From IMG/VR virus record IMGVR_UViG_3300045988_168250, positions 1-30,707 of that record: DNA of 30,707 bases. One strand, given 5' to 3'. A program made the position numbers and the translations under genes. Source of the DNA: a virus. Positions 1-30,707 of this stretch are shown here, piece after piece; positions within the stretch are counted from its first letter, which is position 1; every line of letters starts with the position of its first letter. The notes below the pieces were generated by a model. It did no database searches, was not told the DNA's origin, and was given only the letters and a program-made list of their open reading frames with translations.

Positions 1-2102
1 AGGAAAGACACAATCTGCGCGGCAATCTCCACAATGGTCGTGACCATCGGCACCAACGCGCCGACCACAGTAGACACCATGCCGATGAAAGCTTCACCAA
101 TCTGGACGAGCACGGGGATGACCGCGGCGACAATCGGCTGGACCATCGTCACGAGGCCCTGGAAAATCTGGGCCAGCGAATTGCGGAAAGGCTCACTAGA
201 TGCGAGCGCGGTCACAAACGCGGCCACGAGCAGACCGATACCGGCGACCACCGCGAGCACCGGGGCCGATAGGCCCGCGAGGACGCCAGCGACAGCGCCG
301 ATGACCGGGATAATCGCGCCCACCACGGAGGCAATTGTGCCGATGATTGACACGACGGTGCCGATGACCGGGGCGAGCTGTGCCATTGCGCCGACCACCG
401 CGATGATAGTCGCCGTCAGCTGGGGGTTATTGCGCATGAATTCGGCAATTTGCTTCACGACGTCCGCGATGACGGGGAGGATGACCTTCAGCGCCTCGGA
501 CAGTCCCTTGGCGAGCTCATCGACCACCGGGGCGAGCGATTGCTTAAAATCTGCGAAAGCGGGGGACAGGCCCTGCGCGATTTGGGTGACGAGCGGCGCA
601 ATTGCCTTCACAATGTCGCCGACGGCTCCGAGCAGTGCGCCGACCGAGGGGGCGACCGCCGCGAACGCGGGCGCGAGGGAGATAGCCGCCTGGACAATGC
701 CGTCGAGCAGCTTGCCTACGCCGTCCGCGATAGCGGGGTTGCGCAGGGCGTTAGCCAGACCATCCATGAGGATGGAGATAGCCGTACCGGCCTTCTCCAT
801 CGACCGTGCGATGACCGGGGCGAGCGCCTCGAACGTCTTAGTGAGGGCGCCCACACCAGGCTCGAGAGCCTTGATTGCGTTAAATGCGCCCGTGAATACG
901 GTGGTGAGTGCCCCCTGGAACGCGGGGCCATTCACGATGCCGTTTAGTGCGCCGAGCGCGGTCGCCAGGCCGGCGAGACCACCACCACCGGCGGCCTCCG
1001 CCGCCTTCGCGACACCGTTGATGATGCCGGCCACAGACCCGAGAGCAGAGGCGAAGAGCTTGGCGTTTGTGATGCCCCTCTCAATGAGCTCATAGATTTT
1101 TCCGGAGGCCTCAGCCTGTTCCACCCAGTCACGGAAAGACGTCGCAATCTGCGCGAAGGCCGCGGCCATGCGCGGCAGATAGGTGCCGCCGACAGCGCCG
1201 ATACGGACGATAGCCTCAGCGAGTGGGGCCGCCGCCGTGGACGCAATTTGAAAAGATTCACGGAGCGGCTCGAAGAGCTTTGCCATGCCGCCGACCGCGA
1301 TCATGCCATTTGAAATGCCCTGGAAAAATTCGCCCCAAAATTTACCGGCGATAGGGCCAAAAGCCACATATTGCTTGAGGAACGGGTCGAACGCATTTTC
1401 TACGAACGCGGCGAGGCCGCCGCGCGCTTCATCCCAGAAAGCGCGGCCAAATGCCAAGCGCACATCACGGATGGTGTCCATGATTTTGCCCTCGCCGCCG
1501 TAGAATTTGCCGAGCTCCAGGTGGATATTCTGGAGGCCGTCAGCAGACGCGGCCAGGCCCACGACGAAACCGGACAGGATGCCGGGCAGGGCGAGGCCCG
1601 CGCCCGCGACCTGAGTTAGCGAGACTGCGAGCATCGCGGCATTGCCTGCCGTGGCAGACATCACAGCGCCCATAGCGGCGACACGAGTAGCCGCGAGAGA
1701 CGCCGACACCGCAATCTTATCGAAATTGCCGGCCAGATTCTTGGCGTGCTCGACCGCACCGGCGGCAATATTGCCGCCCGAGAGAGAGGCCAGACCCGCA
1801 CGCGCCGCATCGAGGCCCTTGAGGAGGACGCGGACCTCGGCGGTACGCGGGCGAGTCAGCACGCCCAGTGCCGCCGAGGCCGCGCGGGTTTTAGCGTCCA
1901 CCGTCACATGGGTTTTCAGGTCGCGGCCAATCGTCGCGAGACGCGAGCGCGTCGCCGCGAGCGATGCCTGGTCCACCTGCGCGTGGACCGCTGCCTTTAC
2001 GTCCAGGCCCTTCTCAATCGAGGCGAGCTTGGAGCGCAGCTCGGACTTGAACCGCGACGTGTCGGGGTAGACACGAATCGACAGCTTGCCGATATTCGCC
2101 AT
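1..2102 (-). CDS. Tape measure protein, N-terminal part. The gene runs off the window start and continues at 30707-29752 because the contig is circular, giving about 1005 aa in total. ATG at 2102-2100, RBS GAGAGGAAC upstream.
   Basis: Minus frame (codon top position = 2 mod 3) is open from 2102 to position 1 and in phase with ORF 29752..30699. Translation is Ala/Gly/Ile/Val-rich with repeated hydrophobic segments, typical of tape measure proteins. It lies between the tail chaperones and Dit. The plus ORF 34..1095 is its antisense shadow. Confidence 0.85.
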   Translation of the reverse strand, partial: MANIGKLSIRVYPDTSRFKSELRSKLASIEKGLDVKAAVHAQVDQASLAATRSRLATIGRDLKTHVTVDAKTRAASAALGVLTRPRTAEVRVLLKGLDAARAGLASLSGGNIAAGAVEHAKNLAGNFDKIAVSASLAATRVAAMGAVMSATAGNAAMLAVSLTQVAGAGLALPGILSGFVVGLAASADGLQNIHLELGKFYGGEGKIMDTIRDVRLAFGRAFWDEARGGLAAFVENAFDPFLKQYVAFGPIAGKFWGEFFQGISNGMIAVGGMAKLFEPLRESFQIASTAAAPLAEAIVRIGAVGGTYLPRMAAAFAQIATSFRDWVEQAEASGKIYELIERGITNAKLFASALGSVAGIINGVAKAAEAAGGGGLAGLATALGALNGIVNGPAFQGALTTVFTGAFNAIKALEPGVGALTKTFEALAPVIARSMEKAGTAISILMDGLANALRNPAIADGVGKLLDGIVQAAISLAPAFAAVAPSVGALLGAVGDIVKAIAPLVTQIAQGLSPAFADFKQSLAPVVDELAKGLSEALKVILPVIADVVKQIAEFMRNNPQLTATIIAVVGAMAQLAPVIGTVVSIIGTIASVVGAIIPVIGAVAGVLAGLSAPVLAVVAGIGLLVAAFVTALASSEPFRNSLAQIFQGLVTMVQPIVAAVIPVLVQIGEAFIGMVSTVVGALVPMVTTIVEIAAQIVSF

Positions 2103-7465: not shown

Positions 7466-8709
7466 TCGACGCCCTCACCGAGTGCCGCGCGCACCTCAGA
7501 ATCGTGCGAGTCCTCGCGCTTCGCCTGCTCAGGCGACAGGCCCAGGAATTCGCGTGCCGTCTGCGAGGTGATGACACCCTGCGCCTGCGCCTGCAGCATC
7601 AGCGCATTGCGGGAGCTGATAGACGCCACGGCGGGGTCACGCCAACGCGCCTCCAAAGTCTCCAACCCCTCAACCTTCACGCCTGCCATCTGCAACACCA
7701 TGCGCGCAATCTCCTCAACCGCGTCACCGAAAAGATGCTGCTTCAGCTCGGCGCGGGAAATCAGGCCGTCCTTAGCGGCACGCATAGCCTCCGCACTCGT
7801 AGGATTCGAGTCCGAGCTAACACCCATCATGGACGCGGGGATGCCCGTCATCGCCGAGACCTGCGCGGCGTACAGCTTGAAGCTGCTGATAATTTGCTGG
7901 AGGTCAGCGCCGGGGATAGACCCAGCCTGCGACCCAGACGGGCCAACCAGCAGGTGACCGAAATGAGCCTCCAACCGCGCCAGGCCGGGGTGCAGACCGT
8001 CGCCGGTGAATTGGTCGGCAACGCCGTCACCGAAAAGATAGCGCGTGGGCATGGCGAGGAGCTCCTGCGCAATCTGGAGGTTGGTCAGCGAGCGCGAGGC
8101 GGCATCGCACAGCTCGATGATGTCCTCAACCTCGGAGGTGCCGCCGCCACCGATGCGGGTGCGGTTTACCACCTCCACGATAGGCACACCGGGGTAGGTG
8201 GACGAGTAGTCGTGCTCCTCGATGAGGGTCTCTTCCCCCCCGTCCACCGCATACACCTTCAGGTGGCCGGGGGTGTAGACTGCCTTCTGCTCCACGCCGC
8301 CGCGCGTATAGGTCTGCACCGCCTCGATAATCGTCCCGAAAATATCGCGCTTCACCACGATATCGCGGCCACGATGCGCAGACAGGCGCGGGATGTTCGA
8401 GCCGGGCATAACCGAGCCGCCGGCCACTACCCAGGCGTGGCCGGTCACCAGCGCCTCAGTCAGCGTCAGCGTCAGCAGTGAATCGAAATTATTCGCCTGG
8501 AGGATGCGGTGGAGCTCGTGGGGGACCTCACCACCAGCCATAGTGAACCCCTCTAGCACGAGCGAGCGCACCAGCACATCCACGGTCAGCTTGGGCCAGC
8601 GCACTGGCATCTCCAGAACACGCACATTTGGCGGCAGGGACACGCCGATAGCGTCTAGCCGGCGCCGGCCCTCGTAGTACGCCTCGTAATCCTCTACAGT
8701 ACGAGCCAC
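7462..8709 (-). CDS. Portal protein, 415 aa. GTG start, RBS AAGGAG.
   Basis: Size, position after the large terminase and composition are consistent with SPP1 gp6-type portals. Confidence 0.8.
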   Translation of the reverse strand: MARTVEDYEAYYEGRRRLDAIGVSLPPNVRVLEMPVRWPKLTVDVLVRSLVLEGFTMAGGEVPHELHRILQANNFDSLLTLTLTEALVTGHAWVVAGGSVMPGSNIPRLSAHRGRDIVVKRDIFGTIIEAVQTYTRGGVEQKAVYTPGHLKVYAVDGGEETLIEEHDYSSTYPGVPIVEVVNRTRIGGGGTSEVEDIIELCDAASRSLTNLQIAQELLAMPTRYLFGDGVADQFTGDGLHPGLARLEAHFGHLLVGPSGSQAGSIPGADLQQIISSFKLYAAQVSAMTGIPASMMGVSSDSNPTSAEAMRAAKDGLISRAELKQHLFGDAVEEIARMVLQMAGVKVEGLETLEARWRDPAVASISSRNALMLQAQAQGVITSQTAREFLGLSPEQAKREDSHDSEVRAALGEGVE

Positions 8710-10157
8710 TTCTGCTCCTTTTTCTTTGCGGTCTTCTCTGTCAGACCATAGTACGCCAAAGATGCGGCCACGAGCGGGCTAATATCTGCGCCGGTGTCGG
8801 CACGCGCCCAGTGCCACAGGTCACTCATGCCCTTTGACCGGCGGCACGCCTGCACCGCCTCATCCAGGATAGGGTCGCCCAGGTGACGTACCTTCCCAGA
8901 GGCGATAGCGTCATAAAACGCACCACACGCACGGTCATACTCGCGGCCCGTGAGCCCCCACATCTGCCTTTGCAGAGCCGGGGACCCGCCGACGACACGC
9001 CCAGCCTGGCCAGCCAGCGTGTAGACCATCGCCGCCGGTGACCACGCCTTTTTTAGATCATCCATGCGGCCCGGCACCCACCCGGTACCGCCCTTATGGT
9101 CGATAATCTCGATGTGCACGGTGCCGTCATCACGCCAGGACGCGGCAGCCACCGACGCGATGTCAGACAGCGGGGTGACGTCCACGCCGAACGCAACATC
9201 CAAGCCAGCCTCGGAGTCCTCGTCGCGGCACTGCTCCCAGAAATCGGCGGGGATAGCAGACTCGCCGCCGACTTTCGACCAGATACCCAGGCGCTCGCGA
9301 TTGAATTCCTCCGCGCCCATAGTGCGCCGCTCATCCGCAACCCACTCGGGAGAAATTCGGAGGCCCAGGGCGGGATTTGCCATAGCCCACATTGCAGGGT
9401 CCGCCGGGTCGGCCCCATCAGGCGCAGACCACTCATAAAAAGCCAAATCGCCCGGGTCTCCACTCATAGCGCGGTCACGCACACGGGCCAGAACGTCGCT
9501 ATCGGGAAATCCAGCAGATGATGTATACCACACTTGCGGGTTGCCCTTCATGGTCTTCGCGGACAGCGCCGGGCGAGCCGCCGCCTCCACCTCAACAGGC
9601 AGGTTATACGCCTCATCAAATGCCAGCAGGTCGAACGTGTAGCCGCGAATCGAATCCTTCGAGCGCGCCTTAAACAACATGCGCGTTTTAGAGCGGCCAG
9701 ACGCTTTATCTGCCGCGACCGTGAAACTCATCTCTGAATTTCCGGTCTTGATTCCGGACATTTTGCCGCGCGGGTCGCCACGGTACCCCTCCATCATCTC
9801 GACCAGATAATCACAGCCGCGAATCAGAGACTCCATGCGCCGTTGATGCTCCGCCGCCGTACCGAAAAGGTGTGCAGTGTGAACAATGTTCTCGCTGAAA
9901 AGAAACAGCCCCGCGAGCTCGCGCGCCTCCAGCACCGAGCCCTTGCCATTCTGACGCGGGACGATAAGGCCAACATTTTTAGCGGCCCATTTCCCATCAT
10001 CATTGGTCGCGCACGCGCCACGCAGTACGTGCTCCTGCCACGGGTCCAGCATCAGACCAGCCACAGCGGCCAGGTCCACAGCATCATCACCCCGAGTAGT
10101 CACGTGCAGGGGAGTCACGTCAATGCGCGGGAGCTGAGAACCAACAACCGCGCCCAC
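8694..10157 (-). CDS. Terminase large subunit, 487 aa.
   Basis: Walker A-like VPRQNGKGS, Walker B-like LLAFDEA, and a nuclease-domain acidic residue pattern. Canonical position. Confidence 0.85.
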   Translation of the reverse strand: MGAVVGSQLPRIDVTPLHVTTRGDDAVDLAAVAGLMLDPWQEHVLRGACATNDDGKWAAKNVGLIVPRQNGKGSVLEARELAGLFLFSENIVHTAHLFGTAAEHQRRMESLIRGCDYLVEMMEGYRGDPRGKMSGIKTGNSEMSFTVAADKASGRSKTRMLFKARSKDSIRGYTFDLLAFDEAYNLPVEVEAAARPALSAKTMKGNPQVWYTSSAGFPDSDVLARVRDRAMSGDPGDLAFYEWSAPDGADPADPAMWAMANPALGLRISPEWVADERRTMGAEEFNRERLGIWSKVGGESAIPADFWEQCRDEDSEAGLDVAFGVDVTPLSDIASVAAASWRDDGTVHIEIIDHKGGTGWVPGRMDDLKKAWSPAAMVYTLAGQAGRVVGGSPALQRQMWGLTGREYDRACGAFYDAIASGKVRHLGDPILDEAVQACRRSKGMSDLWHWARADTGADISPLVAASLAYYGLTEKTAKKKEQKWLVL

Positions 10158-10669
10158 TATGCGCCACCAGCCGCGGCACGAGCCTCACGGGCCGCCCGCA
10201 CACGCGCCAACTCATCCACCAAAGACGGGCGCGAATTCGCAGGCTGGCCATCCGCCAGCTTCGCCTTCTCCGTCACCACATTCACCGCGGCAGAAATGAG
10301 ACCGGGCACGTCACGAGCAACCGCAACCTGCAACGAGGCGCGGGCGCGCAGCAGAAGCTCGTCGTAAATCTCGCTAGGTTCCGACAGCGCCGGAACCTCA
10401 ACCTCAATCGACTGGCCATAGGCCACAGTCTGACGGACACGCACCGTCTCACCGCCGGTATGTTTAACCGGCTCGACGGTTAAACGCGCCTCCTGCTCCT
10501 TCTTCACATTCCGACGAGTCTTCTTCTCGTCCTCCGCGCGCTTACGCTCACGATACACCGCCGCGTTCTTCCGCGACGCCTCGCGGCACGCAGGGCACGG
10601 CTCCTCACCAGCACGCTTGTGACGCATGAAAGCGGCGTAGGTGCCGTGCGGCTTCAGGTTGCGAGCCAT
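10157..10669 (-). CDS. Putative terminase small subunit, about 170 aa. ATG 10669, RBS GGAGGTG.
   Basis: Located immediately 5' of the large terminase. Basic N-terminus with the motif HGTYAAF..H...G...CPACREA, which recurs in actinophage small terminase and DNA-binding proteins. Assignment rests on position and motif only. Confidence 0.45.
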   Translation of the reverse strand: MARNLKPHGTYAAFMRHKRAGEEPCPACREASRKNAAVYRERKRAEDEKKTRRNVKKEQEARLTVEPVKHTGGETVRVRQTVAYGQSIEVEVPALSEPSEIYDELLLRARASLQVAVARDVPGLISAAVNVVTEKAKLADGQPANSRPSLVDELARVRAAREARAAAGGA

Positions 10670-10750
10670 TGCTGGCACCTCCAAACGTACAATTTCGGGC
10701 TGGGAGCGCCCGGGGGGAGAAACGACTATGACCGTAGGGGCTCAAATGGG

Positions 10751-10774
10751 GTGTAGGGGGGGTATGCCCCCCCC
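10751..10774 (-). terminator. GC hairpin (G7-tatg-C8 with gtgta/tacac outer arms) just downstream of the HNH gene and upstream of the small terminase gene.
   Basis: Inverted repeat visible at 10756-10762 / 10767-10774. Confidence 0.4.
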
Positions 10775-10788
10775 TCGCGTTACACAGT

Positions 10789-11079
10789 TTACCAGGCGCG
10801 TGTGGTTTTTGGTTTTTTGATTTGGCCTGGCAGGCGGCGTTTGCCGCGGCGTGAGTTGCAGCGCCTGTGTGCTGGGGCGAGTTGGCCGTAGAGGTTTCCG
10901 CCGTTTGCGATGGCGTCGAGGTGGTCGGCGGTGAATGACATGGGGTGTGTGGGCGGGAGCGTGAGGTCGATAGGCTGACCGCACAGGTGACAGGGCAGGC
11001 CCTGGGTTTCGACGGCGCGGCGGAGCGCCTTGGTGCGCTTGATATATTCGTGGGCGTTGTATTTTGTCTTTGTGCTCAT
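10789..11079 (-). CDS. HNH endonuclease, 96 aa.
   Basis: Motifs CHLCGQPID, FTADHLDAIANGGN and APAHRRCNSRRG fit the HNH nuclease signature. Sits next to terminase, as in cos-packaging phages. Confidence 0.8.
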   Translation of the reverse strand: MSTKTKYNAHEYIKRTKALRRAVETQGLPCHLCGQPIDLTLPPTHPMSFTADHLDAIANGGNLYGQLAPAHRRCNSRRGKRRLPGQIKKPKTTRAW

Positions 11080-15108: not shown

Positions 15109-15124
15109 GGACACCTCTCGGAGG

Positions 15125-15162
15125 CTAAAAGAATACCCCCACCCATACCAGGGTGGGGGTAT
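15125..15162 (-). terminator. Intrinsic terminator: a perfect 12-bp stem (atacccccaccc/gggtgggggtat) followed by UCUUUU on the minus transcript. It lies between the SSB and rusA genes.
   Basis: Inverted repeat 15133-15144 / 15151-15162 with a T-rich tract downstream on the minus strand. Confidence 0.6.
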
Positions 15163-15307
15163 CCATAACTATGTAAGGAGAAAGCATGTCCGCGCTCGCG
15201 CGGGCCTACTCTGCGAGACCAGTATAGCACAAGTCCCCCAGGCCGTGATTAGCCGAGGGGACTTGCGTATACCATTCCGCACACTCTACAGGAGTACGTC
15301 TAGCATA

Positions 15308-15841
15308 TCACAGGCGCTCGCCCATAATCACGCGGCGCGGCGCGTCATCCGCGCCCTGCTGTGCCCACGGGTCCGCCTGCTGGGCGAAACCGCCCGCCTG
15401 TACGGTGGGCCAGGCGCTCACCTGCTGCTGAACCTGAACCTGAGCCGGGGCCGGGGCGCCCTGTGCGGGCTGGGCCTGCGCGGGTGCGGCGCTCGCATCA
15501 CGCGGCGGGTAAAGCGGCAACGCGACCAGAGACGCGGACAGCTCCAGGGTCTTGCCCCTCTGGCCGTCCTTGCCCTCCCACTCGCGCAGACGCTCCGACC
15601 CCTGCACGGTCACGGCCATGCCCTTGGCGAGCACGGTCTGCAAATATTCTGGCTTCATGAGGCCACGCTCCCACACGGACACGGAGCGCCAGGTGGTGCC
15701 GGCGGTCTCCCACTCGCCCGTCTGAGGATTTTTTGCGCGGTGGTCCTCGGCCAGCTGGAAATTCAGCACCGGCAGGCCGGTCCCGGTGTAGCGGAGCTTC
15801 GGGTCGGACCCGATACGTCCAGTAATTGTGATATTGGTCAC
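15308..15841 (-). CDS. ssb: Single-stranded DNA-binding protein (OB fold), 177 aa, with a Gln/Ala/Pro-rich linker. GTG start overlaps the upstream TGA as GTGA.
   Basis: The N-terminal MTNITITGRIGSDPKLRYTGTGLPVLNFQLA...TWRSVSVWERG...KGMAVTVQGSERLREWE region matches the bacterial SSB OB fold. Confidence 0.8.
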   Translation of the reverse strand: MTNITITGRIGSDPKLRYTGTGLPVLNFQLAEDHRAKNPQTGEWETAGTTWRSVSVWERGLMKPEYLQTVLAKGMAVTVQGSERLREWEGKDGQRGKTLELSASLVALPLYPPRDASAAPAQAQPAQGAPAPAQVQVQQQVSAWPTVQAGGFAQQADPWAQQGADDAPRRVIMGERL

Positions 15842-16317
15842 TTTTTCGCCCCTTCGGTCAGAAATTTCAGATTTGCGGGGGGCTCGGCGCGCTCTAGCGG
15901 CGGCACTTCCCGGTACTCCACCGGGGTGATGTCGGCGGCGCGGCGCACATAGGCCGGCAGCTCGCCCGCGGCGGCAGTGTAGGCGAACACGAGCTCATTC
16001 CAGTCCTCCACCTCATCGCATGTGGCGGGGGTGAGCTCGGAGAGCTTGCGTTGGATGGCGCGAGCGCGGCGGAGCTTGCCGCCGATTTTCTTGTCCAGCT
16101 CATCCCACGCCTTGGTAATATGCCCGGGCTGGAGCTTCAGCATTTGGGGAACGTGGTAGATGTGCGCGACGATGAGCGCGGCGTGCTGGTCTGGCACATC
16201 CTGGAGCCATACCTCGGACCAGGATTTCGCGCGGGCCGGCGTCATTGGCTCATCCTGGAGGCGGGTATCTGCGCTCGCGGCGAGCGAGTACAGCTGGATG
16301 ATGGTCTCTGGCTTCAT
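15838..16317 (-). CDS. Hypothetical protein, 159 aa, translationally coupled between the initiator-like gene and SSB.
   Basis: ATGA and GTGA overlaps on both sides. Confidence 0.5.
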   Translation of the reverse strand: MKPETIIQLYSLAASADTRLQDEPMTPARAKSWSEVWLQDVPDQHAALIVAHIYHVPQMLKLQPGHITKAWDELDKKIGGKLRRARAIQRKLSELTPATCDEVEDWNELVFAYTAAAGELPAYVRRAADITPVEYREVPPLERAEPPANLKFLTEGAKK

Positions 16318-17087
16318 GCTCGGTCCTCCGTCCAGGGGTCGGTCGTCTCGATTGCGAGGGGCTGGTCCGTGAAGGCGGCCGCGCCGGCTTGGAGCATCTG
16401 GGCGGCGGCTTCATCCCATGTCTGTCGGCGGCGGTTAGCGCGCACCTGCTGGTCTGCCGGGATGGTCCACCGGTCACGCTCTAGCCACCGCTGCGGGTAG
16501 ATTACCCACCGGATATCGTCGGCGGTGAGGTTTTGCTTGGCCCAGGCTCCGAACTCTTGTGCGGCGCGCACGATGGTCTCGGGGGTCTCGCGCTTGACGG
16601 CGGCCTTCCACGCGGTGTGTGCTTTGCAGCGGTCGATGGGGCGCGGGTATGCGGCCCAGAAAGCTTCAAAAGCGAGGTCGCCCTTGCCGGCGGGTGCGCG
16701 GCGGGGCTTGGGGGTTGCCGGCGCGGGGCCGGCGGGCTCTGCAGGGGCGGGCGCGCTCGCAGGCTCGGGGGCCGGTTCACTGGTGACGCTGGCCTGCTGG
16801 GAGGCGCGGATTGCGTCGGGATGGAGGCGGTAGCGGGGGGTGGTGCCGAGCCGCTCGATGCGGGTTGCCCAGCCGTAGGATTCCAGGGCGCGGATTGCGG
16901 CGCGAATCGTATTACGGCTGAGACCGGTATGGGTCTCCAGCGTGGCGAATGACGGCCAGCACTCATGTGTTTGTTCGCTGGTGAAGGTGGCGAGGGCGTG
17001 GAGCGTAATCATCTTTGACGTGCTCAGCTGTGCGCCGGTGGGGGTTCGTGTTGCCCGGAGGGCTGCCGCGATGGCTGTGATGCTCAT
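16314..17087 (-). CDS. Winged-HTH DNA-binding protein, a putative replication initiator or replisome organiser, 257 aa.
   Basis: The N-terminal HTH (LHALATFTSEQTHECWPSFATLETHTGLSRNTIRAAIRALESYGW) is followed by a Pro/Ala linker. It is the first gene of the SSB/RusA operon and sits next to the iteron-like repeats. Confidence 0.5.
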   Translation of the reverse strand: MSITAIAAALRATRTPTGAQLSTSKMITLHALATFTSEQTHECWPSFATLETHTGLSRNTIRAAIRALESYGWATRIERLGTTPRYRLHPDAIRASQQASVTSEPAPEPASAPAPAEPAGPAPATPKPRRAPAGKGDLAFEAFWAAYPRPIDRCKAHTAWKAAVKRETPETIVRAAQEFGAWAKQNLTADDIRWVIYPQRWLERDRWTIPADQQVRANRRRQTWDEAAAQMLQAGAAAFTDQPLAIETTDPWTEDRA

Positions 17088-17183
17088 CTGATTTTCCTTT
17101 CTCGCTTCTCGGTACCTCCAGCCTACCGGTTTTGTCCCGCTCGGCGCAAGTTTGCGGCATGTGAGTTAAGTCTCTTAGTTCAG

Positions 17184-17285
17184 TAAATAGTTAGTTAAAT
17201 AGTTCGGGGGTAATGGCTGGTACCCCCCCATACCAGCCATTGCCTCCCCCCATACCAGCCATTGCCTCCCCCCATACCAGCCATT
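17184..17285. repeat. Iteron-like array. It holds two copies of taaatagtt (17184-17204) and three direct 22-bp copies of cccccc-ataccagccatt-gcct (17223-17285). One inverted copy, aatggctggta (17212-17222), forms a palindrome with the first direct copy.
   Basis: Read directly. Candidate origin of replication or regulator-binding array in the divergent intergenic region. Confidence 0.6.
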
Positions 17286-17655
17286 GGTAAGGGTGGTTTT
17301 TGGTAGGGGGGGGCATTTTGGGCAAAAAAATACCCCGCATAGGCCAAACCATGAAAGCCAATGCGGGGTATTTCAACCAAGAAACCCAAAAGGTCACTAC
17401 TAGTTTACCACAGCATAAGGGCCCCGGAAAACCATGCCGGGGCCCTTATCGACTTCATCACACCTCACAAAAGGAGATGAAGTCATTATACCGCATCTTC
17501 GCAATGCCGAGTGAGTGACATACCAAGTATAGCACGAGAGCCCCCAAATAATTGGGGGCTCTCATGATGACTATTCCGTGTCCACAGCAGCAGTGACTCA
17601 ACTCCCTACCAGTGTACCACACTAGCCGGTGTGTCCAGTATCACGCCGCCGCGCC

Positions 17656-17685
17656 TTGATAATCATCTGGCAGGCGTGCCACAAT
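17656..17685 (+). promoter_or_regulatory. Promoter P2 on the plus strand: TTGATA-N18-CACAAT, with the palindrome TGGCAGGCGTGCCA (17668-17681) overlapping the -10. It drives the plus-strand operon.
   Basis: Read directly. Same architecture as P1 and P6. Confidence 0.55.
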
Positions 17686-17712
17686 GGAATTACCGACCGA
17701 AAGGAACCCCAA

Positions 17713-17892
17713 ATGACCACCCGCGAATTCACCAACGCCTTCGCAATCTTCTTCGCACTCATCACCACCGGCATGTGCGCAATCTTCGCGCTGAGTTTCT
17801 GGACATGGCGCGCCCCCCTCGCAATCACCATCACCGCCTGGGCCGGCGCCGCCCTCATGCCAACCTTCACCGAAAACTGGAAGGACAACTAA
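17713..17892 (+). CDS. Small membrane protein with two predicted TM helices, 59 aa. First gene of the plus-strand operon.
   Basis: ATG 17713 with RBS GAAAGGAA. The hydrophobic segments are AFAIFFALITTGMCAIFALSF and LAITITAWAGAALMP. Confidence 0.5.
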   Translation: MTTREFTNAFAIFFALITTGMCAIFALSFWTWRAPLAITITAWAGAALMPTFTENWKDN

Positions 17893-20054: not shown

Positions 20055-20069
20055 CCCCGCCCCCCCCTG

Positions 20070-20107
20070 CGCGGCCACGCCCCCGCAACCTTGGGGGTGT
20101 GGCCGCG
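20070..20107 (+). terminator. Terminator-like hairpin after recT: a 15-bp stem with one G-U pair (cgcggccacgccccc / gggggtgtggccgcg).
   Basis: Inverted repeat read directly. A weak U tract (gttgtgtg) follows. Confidence 0.5.
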
Positions 20108-20142
20108 TCCCCGTTGTGTGATGAGGTTCACACGCTCAAAAC

Positions 20143-20171
20143 TTGCGACAGGCTGGCAGGCCTGCCATACT
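20143..20171 (+). promoter_or_regulatory. Promoter P6 on the plus strand: TTGCGA-N17-CATACT, with the palindrome TGGCAGGCCTGCCA (20154-20167) overlapping the -10. Upstream of the acidic protein gene.
   Basis: Read directly. Third copy of the TGGCA-N4-TGCCA operator. Confidence 0.5.
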
Positions 20172-20220
20172 ATAGATGTGAGGCAAACAGCCAAACAAAC
20201 CAACAACAAAGGAGAACACC

Positions 20221-29758: not shown

Positions 29759-30707
29759 ATCCTCTCTGCGCGGCGGGCCATCTGGAGGAAAGCCCGCTCG
29801 TCTACGGCTCCCAGGCGGGACAGCACGTCCACCAGCTGGGAGATAACCTCAGCGTCCAGGCCGCCGGCCTGCTGTGCGGGGGATGCCGCGGGGGCCGCCG
29901 GGACGGGGGTCGCCGGGACGACAGCCGACAGGTCCGCCGCCGGGGACAGATTGAAATCCATGCCGCCGAGCGCGAAGCTCGCAGCAGAAGCCAGCTGCCC
30001 GCGACCCTCCTCAATGCTGTTAGCAAAATCACCAATCAGCGCACGACCCGAGTAAGTCGTGTAGCCCCGGCCACTGAAGCGGCCGCGCTTAGCCGGCGAG
30101 TGCGGGAAGAAATCGCCAATCGCCTTCATGACTCCGCCGACCGCATCCGTCACGCCGCTGAGCATACTCTTGATTCCGTCGATGAATCCTCCGATGAGGG
30201 CCTTACCGGAGTCCACGAGCATGCCGCCAAGGTTGCCTAGGCCGTCCTTGATTTTCTGCGGCATGGACTTCACAAATTCGACCGCGGACCCGACGCCATC
30301 GCTAATCGCCTTGGTGATGCCGTTCCACGCGCCCACCACGAAATCGCCGATGCCATTCCAGAGGTTGTTCCAGATGTCCACCAGCATTTTCGCAAGGTTC
30401 TCGAAAATGTGCATGACAACATCGAAAGCGCCCGTGATGGTGTTCACAATGAAATCGAGAATCCCCTTCAGTACGTCGAGGATGCCATTCCAGGCGCCTT
30501 CCCAATCACCACGCAGAGCCGACAGGAAAACGTTCAGGATGCCTGTGATAATGTTCACAGCGTCCGAGATGACTTTGCCGATGAAACCGAAAATGTCCGA
30601 GACCGTTTTGCCGATAAATTCGAAAGCGGGAGAAAAAGTCTGGATGAGGAAAGCCACAATCGGGGCGAGGAAAGACACAATCTGCGCGGCAATCTCCACA
30701 ATGGTCG
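29752..30707 (-). CDS. Tape measure protein, C-terminal part. This is the same gene as 1..2102, wrapped. Stop TAG at 29754-29752.
   Basis: ORF 29752..30699 (MEIAAQIVSFLAP...) carries on the reading frame of the minus-strand ORF that leaves the window at position 1. The 40-bp terminal duplication proves the junction. Confidence 0.85.
   Translation of the reverse strand, partial: TIVEIAAQIVSFLAPIVAFLIQTFSPAFEFIGKTVSDIFGFIGKVISDAVNIITGILNVFLSALRGDWEGAWNGILDVLKGILDFIVNTITGAFDVVMHIFENLAKMLVDIWNNLWNGIGDFVVGAWNGITKAISDGVGSAVEFVKSMPQKIKDGLGNLGGMLVDSGKALIGGFIDGIKSMLSGVTDAVGGVMKAIGDFFPHSPAKRGRFSGRGYTTYSGRALIGDFANSIEEGRGQLASAASFALGGMDFNLSPAADLSAVVPATPVPAAPAASPAQQAGGLDAEVISQLVDVLSRLGAVDERAFLQMARRAERIC
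30668..30707. repeat. Exact 40-bp duplicate of window positions 1-40. This is the assembly overlap of a circular contig; the unit genome is 30,667 bp.
   Basis: Direct comparison shows aggaaagacacaatctgcgcggcaatctccacaatggtcg at both ends. Confidence 0.95.

Follow-up and report, generated by a model that had tools for sequence, protein, structure and literature searches.

A 22-bp repeat array in the 30,707-nt virus record IMGVR_UViG_3300045988_168250 (hereafter the window, meaning its full length) probably forms an iteron-type, theta-type replication origin, situated in the intergenic region upstream of a gene for a 257-aa helix-turn-helix (HTH) protein, the putative initiator; we put the probability of this reading at roughly 0.65. 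We favour it because the core repeats are unique in the genome and their 22-bp phase and TGGTAT motif are conserved in seven relatives, because a distant lineage keeps the units, blocks and an AT-rich repeat in the same upstream order, because the complete genome holds neither a replisome gene nor another recognisable sequence-specific DNA-binding protein, because the AT tract beside the array is the genome's least stable duplex, and because homologous initiators usually carry tandem arrays at the position of the lambda origin, ori-lambda. These points, together with the initiator families matched by the protein, support the original prediction, which had proposed an origin of this type from the sequence of the window. 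They also agree with the published definition of iteron origins by unit length, unit number, helical phasing and an adjacent unwinding element (PMC4980987), all of which match the array. The link between initiator and repeats is correlative, and the binding, melting and helicase recruitment described below are deduced from sequence.

About 100 bp upstream of the initiator gene, two 9-bp AT-rich repeats, three direct 22-bp repeats preceded by an inverted copy, and a G-rich tract behind them had been described, and we recovered each of these elements. In a repeat search, the direct copies mapped to 17224-17245, 17246-17267 and 17268-17289, the third deviating in its final bases, and TRF scored the stretch 17224-17286 (period 22 nt, 2.9 copies, 100% matches) at 126, the top tandem-repeat score in the window. 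The 12-mer ATACCAGCCATT matches exactly three times and once more, inverted and with one mismatch, at 17212-17223, and is found nowhere else in the 30.7 kb at up to one mismatch. This fourth match belongs to the inverted copy ahead of the direct repeats, whose 17-nt arms (17206-17222) are 88% complementary to units 1 and 2. The 9-mer TAAATAGTT occurs exactly twice, at 17184-17192 and 17196-17204 (chance expectation 0.01), beginning 97 nt upstream of the initiator's minus-strand ATG (17087); from the same codon, the distance to the 22-bp units is 137-202 nt, likewise upstream. The extent proposed for the array, 17184-17285, needs to be amended: the array continues for about 30 bp beyond 17285, since a further inverted half-unit, TGGTAGGGGGGGG, sits at 17301-17313 in the G-rich tract (17290-17319). 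The array thus consists of direct units with inverted copies on both flanks. Two open reading frames in this region, 17191..17397 and 17195..17389, had been called spurious, rightly in our view, as they cross both the repeats and a terminator hairpin and would be thrown out of frame by the 22-bp difference in copy number that one relative, L015, displays. The coordinates of the array and of the features around it are collected in Table 1.

Table 1. Features of the candidate origin and its surroundings, in window coordinates.
Feature	Position	Strand	Remarks
Initiator gene, 257 aa	16314..17087	-	N-terminal winged HTH domain, residues ~18-95; Pro/Ala-rich linker; helical C-domain with FEAFWAAYP motif
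AT-rich tract, candidate DNA unwinding element	17164..17204		Two TAAATAGTT repeats and a 12-nt-period AACT motif
Promoter-proximal inverted unit	17206..17223		TACCAGCCATT in the initiator's reading direction
Three direct 22-bp units, candidate iterons	17224..17289		Each AATGGCTGGTAT plus a 10-nt G-rich spacer, in the initiator's direction
Distal conserved block	17290..17314		CCCCTACCAAAAACCACCCT in the initiator's direction; inverted half-unit TGGTAGGGGGGGG on the plus strand
Predicted proximal promoter of the initiator operon	17120..17149	-	-35 TTGCGC (17144-17149), 18-nt spacer, -10 TAGGCT (17120-17125)
Initiator 5' untranslated region (UTR) / Shine-Dalgarno region	17096..17113	-	ACCGAGAAGCGAGAAAGG; complementary to 17375-17394; inverted repeat in L001
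Intrinsic terminator of leftward transcription	17324..17373	-	Hairpin and U7, about 10 nt short of the array
Segment complementary to the initiator's ribosome-binding region	17375..17394	-	ACCTTTTGGGTTTCTTGGTT; almost invariant in close relatives
Structured leader/small-RNA region	17402..17621	-	Extended -10-like boxes alternating with GC hairpins
Extended -10-like boxes	17402-17412, 17485-17490, 17526-17534, 17611-17621	-	From sequence
GC hairpins	17415-17449, 17451-17484, 17533-17566	-	Conserved in relatives
Predicted rightward promoter	17656..17685	+	TTGATA-18-CACAAT, preceded by TG; conserved in relatives; serves the 59-aa protein/RecE/RecT operon
159-aa protein gene	15838-16317	-	Directly downstream of the initiator and translationally coupled to it
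SSB gene	15308-15841	-	Follows the 159-aa protein gene

A metagenome protein collection yielded 44 close homologues of the initiator (76-91% identity), from which seven distinct genomes of about 30-31 kb (L001, L013, L015, L017, L018, L021 and L022) were taken as the close comparison set. Across all seven, the distance from the array to the initiator start codon is equal, TGGTAT never changes and the units recur every 22 bp exactly. Around this fixed frame the array varies: spacers read G6AGGC, G9C or G9T, core position 6 alternates between C and T, the number of direct units ranges from two to three (L015 has only two), and in L017 and L021 one unit is flipped, giving the perfect palindrome ATACCAGCCATTGGTAT. 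The dyad TACCA-N5-TGGTA, complete in unit 1 of the window and reduced to one good half-site each in units 2 and 3, is complete in the flipped unit of L017 and L021 as well. The proximal inverted unit is intact in L017, L018, L021 and L022, and the distal block is almost invariant in eight of eight close genomes. Protein-binding iterons behave in this way, holding core and phase while spacers, number and orientation are free to vary; neither a coding sequence nor a single RNA helix would.

Three further homologues in the same collection, at 45-47% identity, represent a distant lineage, whose initiator is 45-50% identical to that of the window. Its short-k-mer assemblies without exception end 160-186 bp upstream of the initiator gene, within a related repeat; a full contig is QWCF01000140.1 (locus L024). 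There, the order is a terminator, a CCCCTACCA block, two 23-bp units composed of TACCTACCATTGGTA and G8, a proximal unit present as TACCAATGATTGA, an AT-rich TAACTAAT repeat of 12-nt period at the position of the AT tract, a promoter and the initiator gene, with the counterpart of the distal block recognisable as CCCCTACCAAAACATACCCC. The 23-bp units have the same TGGTA/TACCA half-sites, and both show the full dyad with one mismatch; the remaining intergenic region cannot be aligned between the two lineages. As the winged-helix domain of the initiator is 69-71% identical between them and the C-domain 31-36%, the conserved DNA-binding domain goes together with the conserved half-sites. Between two genomes of the distant lineage, L009 (25-37) and L012 (18-30), the central 7 bp of the proximal unit are inverted (TACCAATGGTTGA versus TACCAACCATTGA), which suggests conversion between oppositely oriented units.

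The first and last 40 nt of the window (1-40 and 30668-30707) are identical, marking a closed circular assembly of about 30,667 bp in which the tape-measure gene crosses the junction; the window is a complete siphophage genome of about 30.7 kb. All of its large ORFs could be attributed to virion, lysis or recombination functions, and the earlier statement that the phage encodes no polymerase, helicase or primase holds, as none is found among the assigned large ORFs of this complete genome. Family and profile searches of the complete genome likewise found no integrase, repressor, ParA, ParB, TubZ or partition genes, and no recognisable sequence-specific DNA-binding protein besides the 257-aa initiator. 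It is conceivable in principle that the array is another kind of cis-acting site, a packaging (pac/cos) site, a partition centromere or a set of attP arm sites, since terminase-binding, ParB/TubR-binding and integrase arm sites also form arrays of direct and inverted repeats, and TubR and the pNOB8 centromere-binding protein are among the weak fold matches of the initiator's winged helix. We regard this as highly improbable: the terminase genes and the adjacent HNH gene (8694-11079), markers of the cos region, are 6 kb distant, the genome lacks ParA, TubZ, ParB and integrase, and the contigs of relatives are circularly permuted at arbitrary points, with ends that do not fall at the array except in short-k-mer assemblies.

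Such exceptions are numerous: the Logan short-k-mer contigs of many relatives (L009, L010, L011, L012, L016, L020 and L023) end within the array, and the ENA scaffold L019 carries a run of N at this place. These breaks are an assembly artefact of exact 22-23-bp repeats, and the array is therefore systematically missing from short-k-mer assemblies.

The protein encoded next to the array had been described as an initiator-like HTH protein, and profile searches bear this out, with matches to phrog_270 (2.6e-28), the O-like phrog_391 (3.9e-14) and Pfam HTH_36 (9.3e-13). The match to phrog_270, annotated as 'replication initiation protein', spans residues 20-224 and thereby both domains; that to phrog_391 falls on the N-terminal region. 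The C-domain is 31-38% identical to proteins of Arthrobacter, Oenococcus and Bacillus phages annotated as 'replication initiation protein / DnaD-like helicase loader'. An AlphaFold model has two folded domains (predicted local distance difference test score, pLDDT, ~75-83), a winged helix and a helical C-domain joined by a disordered Pro/Ala linker, so that the initiator is predicted to possess one winged helix and a helical C-domain, not a WH1-WH2 pair. No Rep_3 or RepA-type Pfam family matched it, RP-C reaching 16.8 bits with a cut-off of 24.4.

A family-wide link between such initiators and tandem arrays emerges from the position of repeats in homologous genes. Using an alignment of diverse homologues to search IMG/VR, we collected 80 loci. 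In 43 of these, a tandem array lies inside the gene, no further than 300 nt 5' of the FEAFW motif, where the linker is encoded; 50 of the 64 arrays found anywhere in the surveyed loci fall into this single 300-nt bin. Grouped at about 60% identity, the loci form 35 lineages: 20 have a linker array, the window's lineage is the only one with its array upstream, and 14 have no detectable array, a class that is probably over-counted because TRF at the survey settings misses even the iterons of lambda itself. Repeats were also sought near the TRF-negative homologues L038, L051 and L056, and nothing convincing was found. Periods of the linker arrays range from 10 to 24 bp, and some 20 different unit sequences were counted, many of them 22-23-bp palindromes. 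In L003 (1820-2055), for instance, six to seven palindromic 23-bp units are followed by an AT-richer 12-nt repeat, and in L006 (4198-4360), four to five units of 21 bp by an AT-rich stretch, both within the gene; 11-bp arrays lie inside the gene in Arthrobacter phage Marchesin and Oenococcus phage Krappator149. The IMG/VR loci of the survey are L029-L107, and the arrays of L025 (1454-1484) and L026 (1398-1462) are also among the intragenic ones. Ori-lambda sits within gene O (PMC7466680), at the same position as these linker arrays. The simplest reading is that members of the family are initiators that bind origins and have cognate iterons, the origin of the window's lineage lying outside the gene. 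A candidate intragenic origin in the window phage itself, a 19-bp low-complexity linker repeat at 16725-16769, was rejected, as it is GC-rich, unconserved and not followed by an AT tract; the initiator linker of the window's lineage contains no conserved repeat.

Between the array and the initiator gene lies the AT-rich tract 17164-17204, which is 76% AT in a genome of 63% G+C; by nearest-neighbour free energy, it ranks lowest in stability among all 30- and 40-bp duplexes of the window (z = 4.2-4.4). A number of observations weigh against an origin at this site. Cumulative GC skew, which had been recommended as a check, gave no support, as the site is the maximum of the cumulative skew: the curve has its peak near 17100, with the polarity of a bacterial terminus and not of an origin. 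DnaA boxes are not enriched over shuffled sequences, with the proviso that the consensus may not be that of the host, and the lone 8/9 match, at 17578, is not conserved in relatives. The proximal inverted unit is degenerate in L001, L013 and L015, three of the eight close genomes, so not every element of the array can be essential. A fold search with the initiator model returned generic winged-helix regulators only and did not identify the protein as an initiator by structure; nor was sequence homology to lambda O detected (hhalign of profile A3 against lambda O: probability 0.2, E = 0.36). Finally, the array stands 50-150 bp upstream of the predicted promoter of the initiator, a place equally suited to the binding of a transcription activator.

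The skew result can be accounted for. Its peak coincides with the divergent switch of transcription direction, and a second flip, at about 10.1-11.1 kb, occurs inside same-strand genes at the border between the early genes and the HNH-terminase region (presumed cos). The coding strands of early genes are C-rich to either side of the divergent region, those of late genes G-rich. The skew thus follows gene class, not replication, and is uninformative here as an origin test.

The location of the array is one reason to consider that it might serve transcriptional control only, with the winged-helix protein or some unrecognised factor of phage or host activating or autoregulating the promoter of the initiator operon, and with replication starting elsewhere or being driven by RecET recombination. 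The distance to the predicted -35 box, about 55-165 bp, is typical of an upstream activator site, the array lies within the genome's only divergent promoter region, the best structural and PDB-sequence matches of the initiator are MarR/GntR/IclR-type regulators, plasmid Rep proteins commonly autoregulate through inverted repeats (PMC4980987), and the GC skew has no origin signal at the array. We nevertheless judge this account unlikely. The repeat units overlap neither predicted promoter, the full-length protein matches replication-initiator families across both of its domains, and in the 20 homologous lineages with arrays inside coding sequence a promoter-operator role is not possible; the least stable duplex alongside is a feature of origins, as is the strict two-turn phasing. 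An origin and a control site could, moreover, coexist in the array.

The proximal initiator promoter is itself a prediction from sequence. The second and sixth positions of its -10 box (A and T) are kept in relatives (TAGACT, CATACT), and L024 has TTGCAC-18-TACGAT at the corresponding position. Downstream of recT, at 20055-20175 on the plus strand, a terminator-like hairpin is followed by a promoter-like site that shares the layout of the initiator promoter, with TTGCGA, a spacing of 17-18 nt and CATACT.

If the array is an iteron origin, its operation may be envisaged as follows. Early leftward transcription would yield the 257-aa initiator, whose N-terminal winged-helix domain would bind the TGGTAT-containing 12-mers; spaced 22 bp apart, or two helical turns, these would all be presented on the same face of the DNA. 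The inverted copies at the ends of the array would help to wrap or loop the DNA into an O-some-like complex, and the resulting strain would melt the adjoining 40-bp AT tract. The C-domain of the initiator, probably with the conserved 159-aa partner, would then recruit the host helicase and primosome, phage SSB would coat the opened strands, and DNA would be synthesised by the host polymerase, as the phage encodes none. In the last step, RecE/RecT and RusA would support recombination-dependent concatemers for cos packaging by TerL and HNH.

On the side of the array that faces away from the initiator gene, the stretch 17322-17650 is most likely transcribed leftward into one or more structured RNAs, either a leader or small RNAs, because compensatory changes and changes to G.U pairs possible only on the minus strand keep its hairpins. 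The hairpin and T-run of the terminator are kept in all relatives, with both kinds of change, and in the RNA region RNAalifold identified 12 pairs kept via two-sided changes, besides many one-sided changes that lead to G.U on the minus strand only. The RNA-region stems of L024 are wholly different yet at the same positions, and a different stem followed by T5 occupies the position of the terminator. Rfam searches of the whole window (gathering threshold) and of 17050-17750 (E-value scan) returned nothing above threshold; at the terminator hairpin, c4-2 and NsiR1 reached about 20 bits, below threshold. The module found at 17526-17566, a hairpin followed by TGCTATACT, recurs in the 190-bp gap between the SSB and RusA genes (15115-15307, minus strand), where it precedes a terminator-like hairpin (ATACCCCCACCC/GGGTGGGGGTAT). 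The near-match TGGTATGGGTGG at 15139-15150 was considered as an additional iteron and rejected, as it represents loop and stem of the terminator-like hairpin between these two genes.

A leftward RNA might also prime the leading strand directly through an R-loop, in the manner of T4 oriF/oriG or ColE1, with the initiator as an accessory factor and with repeats that matter chiefly for their G runs, a G-rich RNA being formed on a C-rich template. Several extended -10-like boxes are aimed at the array, with intervening hairpins that are conserved as minus-strand RNA; spacer runs of G6-G9 are kept on the non-template strand in both lineages; and an AT-rich unwinding element lies directly downstream. 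T4 origins, too, consist of a promoter and a downstream unwinding element and act via R-loops (PMC3016281), and RNA-based replication is documented in actinobacteriophage prophages (PMC7157519). However, the conserved U7 intrinsic terminator would halt leftward transcripts about 10 nt ahead of the array, the non-G part AATGGYTGGTAT is the most conserved part of the unit, pointing to recognition by a protein, a dedicated initiator protein is present, and the phage has no RNase H or polymerase I-type function. We therefore consider a transcript-primed origin quite improbable.

The RNA region may act on the initiator. Its segment 17375-17394 can pair with the ribosome-binding site (RBS) region of the initiator, 17096-17113, with a predicted ΔG of -21.8 kcal/mol, attained by at most 1% of shuffled sequences. 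In L024, a different segment (726-750) is complementary to that locus's own 5' UTR (1034-1060; ΔG -24.5, 0.6% of shuffles), and cross-lineage duplexes are no better than shuffles. This claim rests on a position-matched test with shuffles and cross-lineage controls; a genome-wide energy scan for RBS-pairing segments in the close lineage was swamped by GC-rich chance duplexes. The complementarity covaries from one lineage to the other, which suggests that translation of the initiator is under RNA control; we regard this as a lead. One may go further and imagine a composite origin in which the array, placed between the conserved terminator and the initiator promoter, is combined with structured RNAs that stop at this terminator, pair with the initiator RBS and, upon read-through, seed R-loops on the G-run spacers, an ancestral intragenic origin having been relocated to allow such control. 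The RBS-pairing RNA would then be a sense-strand analogue of plasmid copy-control RNAs, and R-loop seeding would couple early transcription to the firing of the origin. As a whole, we consider this scheme doubtful.

The iteron origin proposed here would lie between two oppositely oriented gene groups. A run of minus-strand genes begins at 17087 with the initiator, continues with the 159-aa protein, SSB, RusA, small unknowns, HNH, terminase, portal, protease, scaffold, capsid and tail genes, and has the endolysin as its last gene; a short plus-strand operon from about 17713 encodes a 59-aa membrane protein, a 133-aa protein, RecE and RecT; since these two groups flank the 540-bp gap 17088-17628, the gap is the sole divergent control region of the genome. 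The initiator leads a conserved module comprising the 159-aa protein, SSB and RusA, and the order initiator, 159-aa protein, SSB is kept in every relative, the distant lineage included. For the 159-aa protein, we found no family or PDB match, and a single-sequence model (pLDDT 45) was too poor for use. Several relatives have an N6/N4 DNA methyltransferase gene in the SSB-RusA gap, which the window does not. The 59-aa protein gene (17713-17892, plus strand), which opens the rightward early operon, encodes two hydrophobic segments and is present in all close relatives, without a family match. Searches for tRNA and tmRNA genes in the window found none.

Among 50,697 deposited phages, there is no close relative, only short gene-level matches; by terminase similarity, the phage belongs among the actinobacteriophages. 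A search for host or prophage copies in 185,579 reference genomes found no relative of the initiator, and the best match of the endolysin was at 44% to Streptomyces.

The origins of actinobacteriophages have seldom been mapped. The window offers a precise 150-bp candidate together with its cognate initiator, from an uncultured lineage of phages met repeatedly in public metagenome assemblies (IMG/VR, ENA and Logan contigs). For annotation, our survey suggests the rule that initiators with a FEAFW-type C-domain usually hold their origin within the gene, as a tandem array where the linker is encoded, while the window's lineage indicates that the array can relocate upstream. If the origin reading is true, the array, AT tract, initiator and 159-aa partner could be used as a small replicon for high-GC Gram-positive hosts. 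The RBS-complementary RNA would be a case in which the control of a phage initiator by RNA can be tested.

Several known systems share features with the region described here. Like T4 oriF/oriG and ColE1, it has promoter-like boxes aimed at an AT-rich unwinding element and G-rich non-template DNA that would favour RNA-DNA hybrids (PMC3016281), but it differs from them in the conserved terminator between transcripts and array, in its dedicated initiator and in its protein-type sites. The neighbouring RNA element recalls the c4 RNA of P1 and P7, an RNA encoded upstream on the same strand, with complementarity to the ribosome-binding region of a gene further downstream; this is a resemblance of logic only, the Rfam c4-2 score of 20 bits comparing with a gathering score of 41 bits. 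With the extrachromosomal prophage replicons of mycobacteriophages, which are RepA-type or RNA-based (Wetzel et al. 2020), the window shares an HTH initiator that is tightly linked to the presumed origin (PMC7157519), and some of these replicons use a non-coding RNA (PMC7157519). They serve parABS-linked prophage maintenance, however, and their authors found no repeated motifs (PMC7157519), whereas the window has a clear iteron array and no par system, repressor or integrase.

Closer parallels are offered by iteron plasmids such as pPS10, R6K, P1 oriR, F and RK2 oriV, which likewise have, ahead of the rep gene, direct sites repeated every 22 bp, together with an inverted copy close to the rep promoter, an unwinding element with short repeats of its own and a variable number of iterons (PMC4980987). 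Direct repeats of 17-22 bp, in helical phase and near the initiator gene, belong to the definition of this group (PMC4980987) and are found in the window. Differences concern the protein, which is not of the Rep_3, RepA_N or TrfA type with two winged helices, the DnaA boxes, which in the window are not enriched (with a consensus that may not be the host's), and the inverted copy at 17206-17223, which lies about 55 bp upstream of the predicted -35, does not overlap the predicted promoter and is degenerate in three of eight genomes. The lambda origin differs in other respects: the window's array is located upstream of the initiator gene, while that of lambda is inside gene O; its units are mostly half-dyads with G-run spacers; the gene after the initiator encodes the 159-aa protein and not a recognisable P or DnaC-type loader; and the initiator has no detectable sequence homology to lambda O. 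Yet the initiators encoded by both phages have two separate domains, of which the N-terminal one is the DNA-binding domain (PMC7466680). Lambda has three to four sites about 20-23 bp apart, some with dyad symmetry (PMC7466680), to which the window's three direct, one inverted and one inverted half-unit of 22-bp period correspond, and an adjoining AT-rich tract, dependence on the host replisome and strong nearby transcription are further points of likeness (PMC7466680). Seen against these systems, the element would be of a familiar origin design, unusual in its upstream position within a family that normally keeps the origin inside the gene, with the RNA element abutting the array as a second point of moderate interest.

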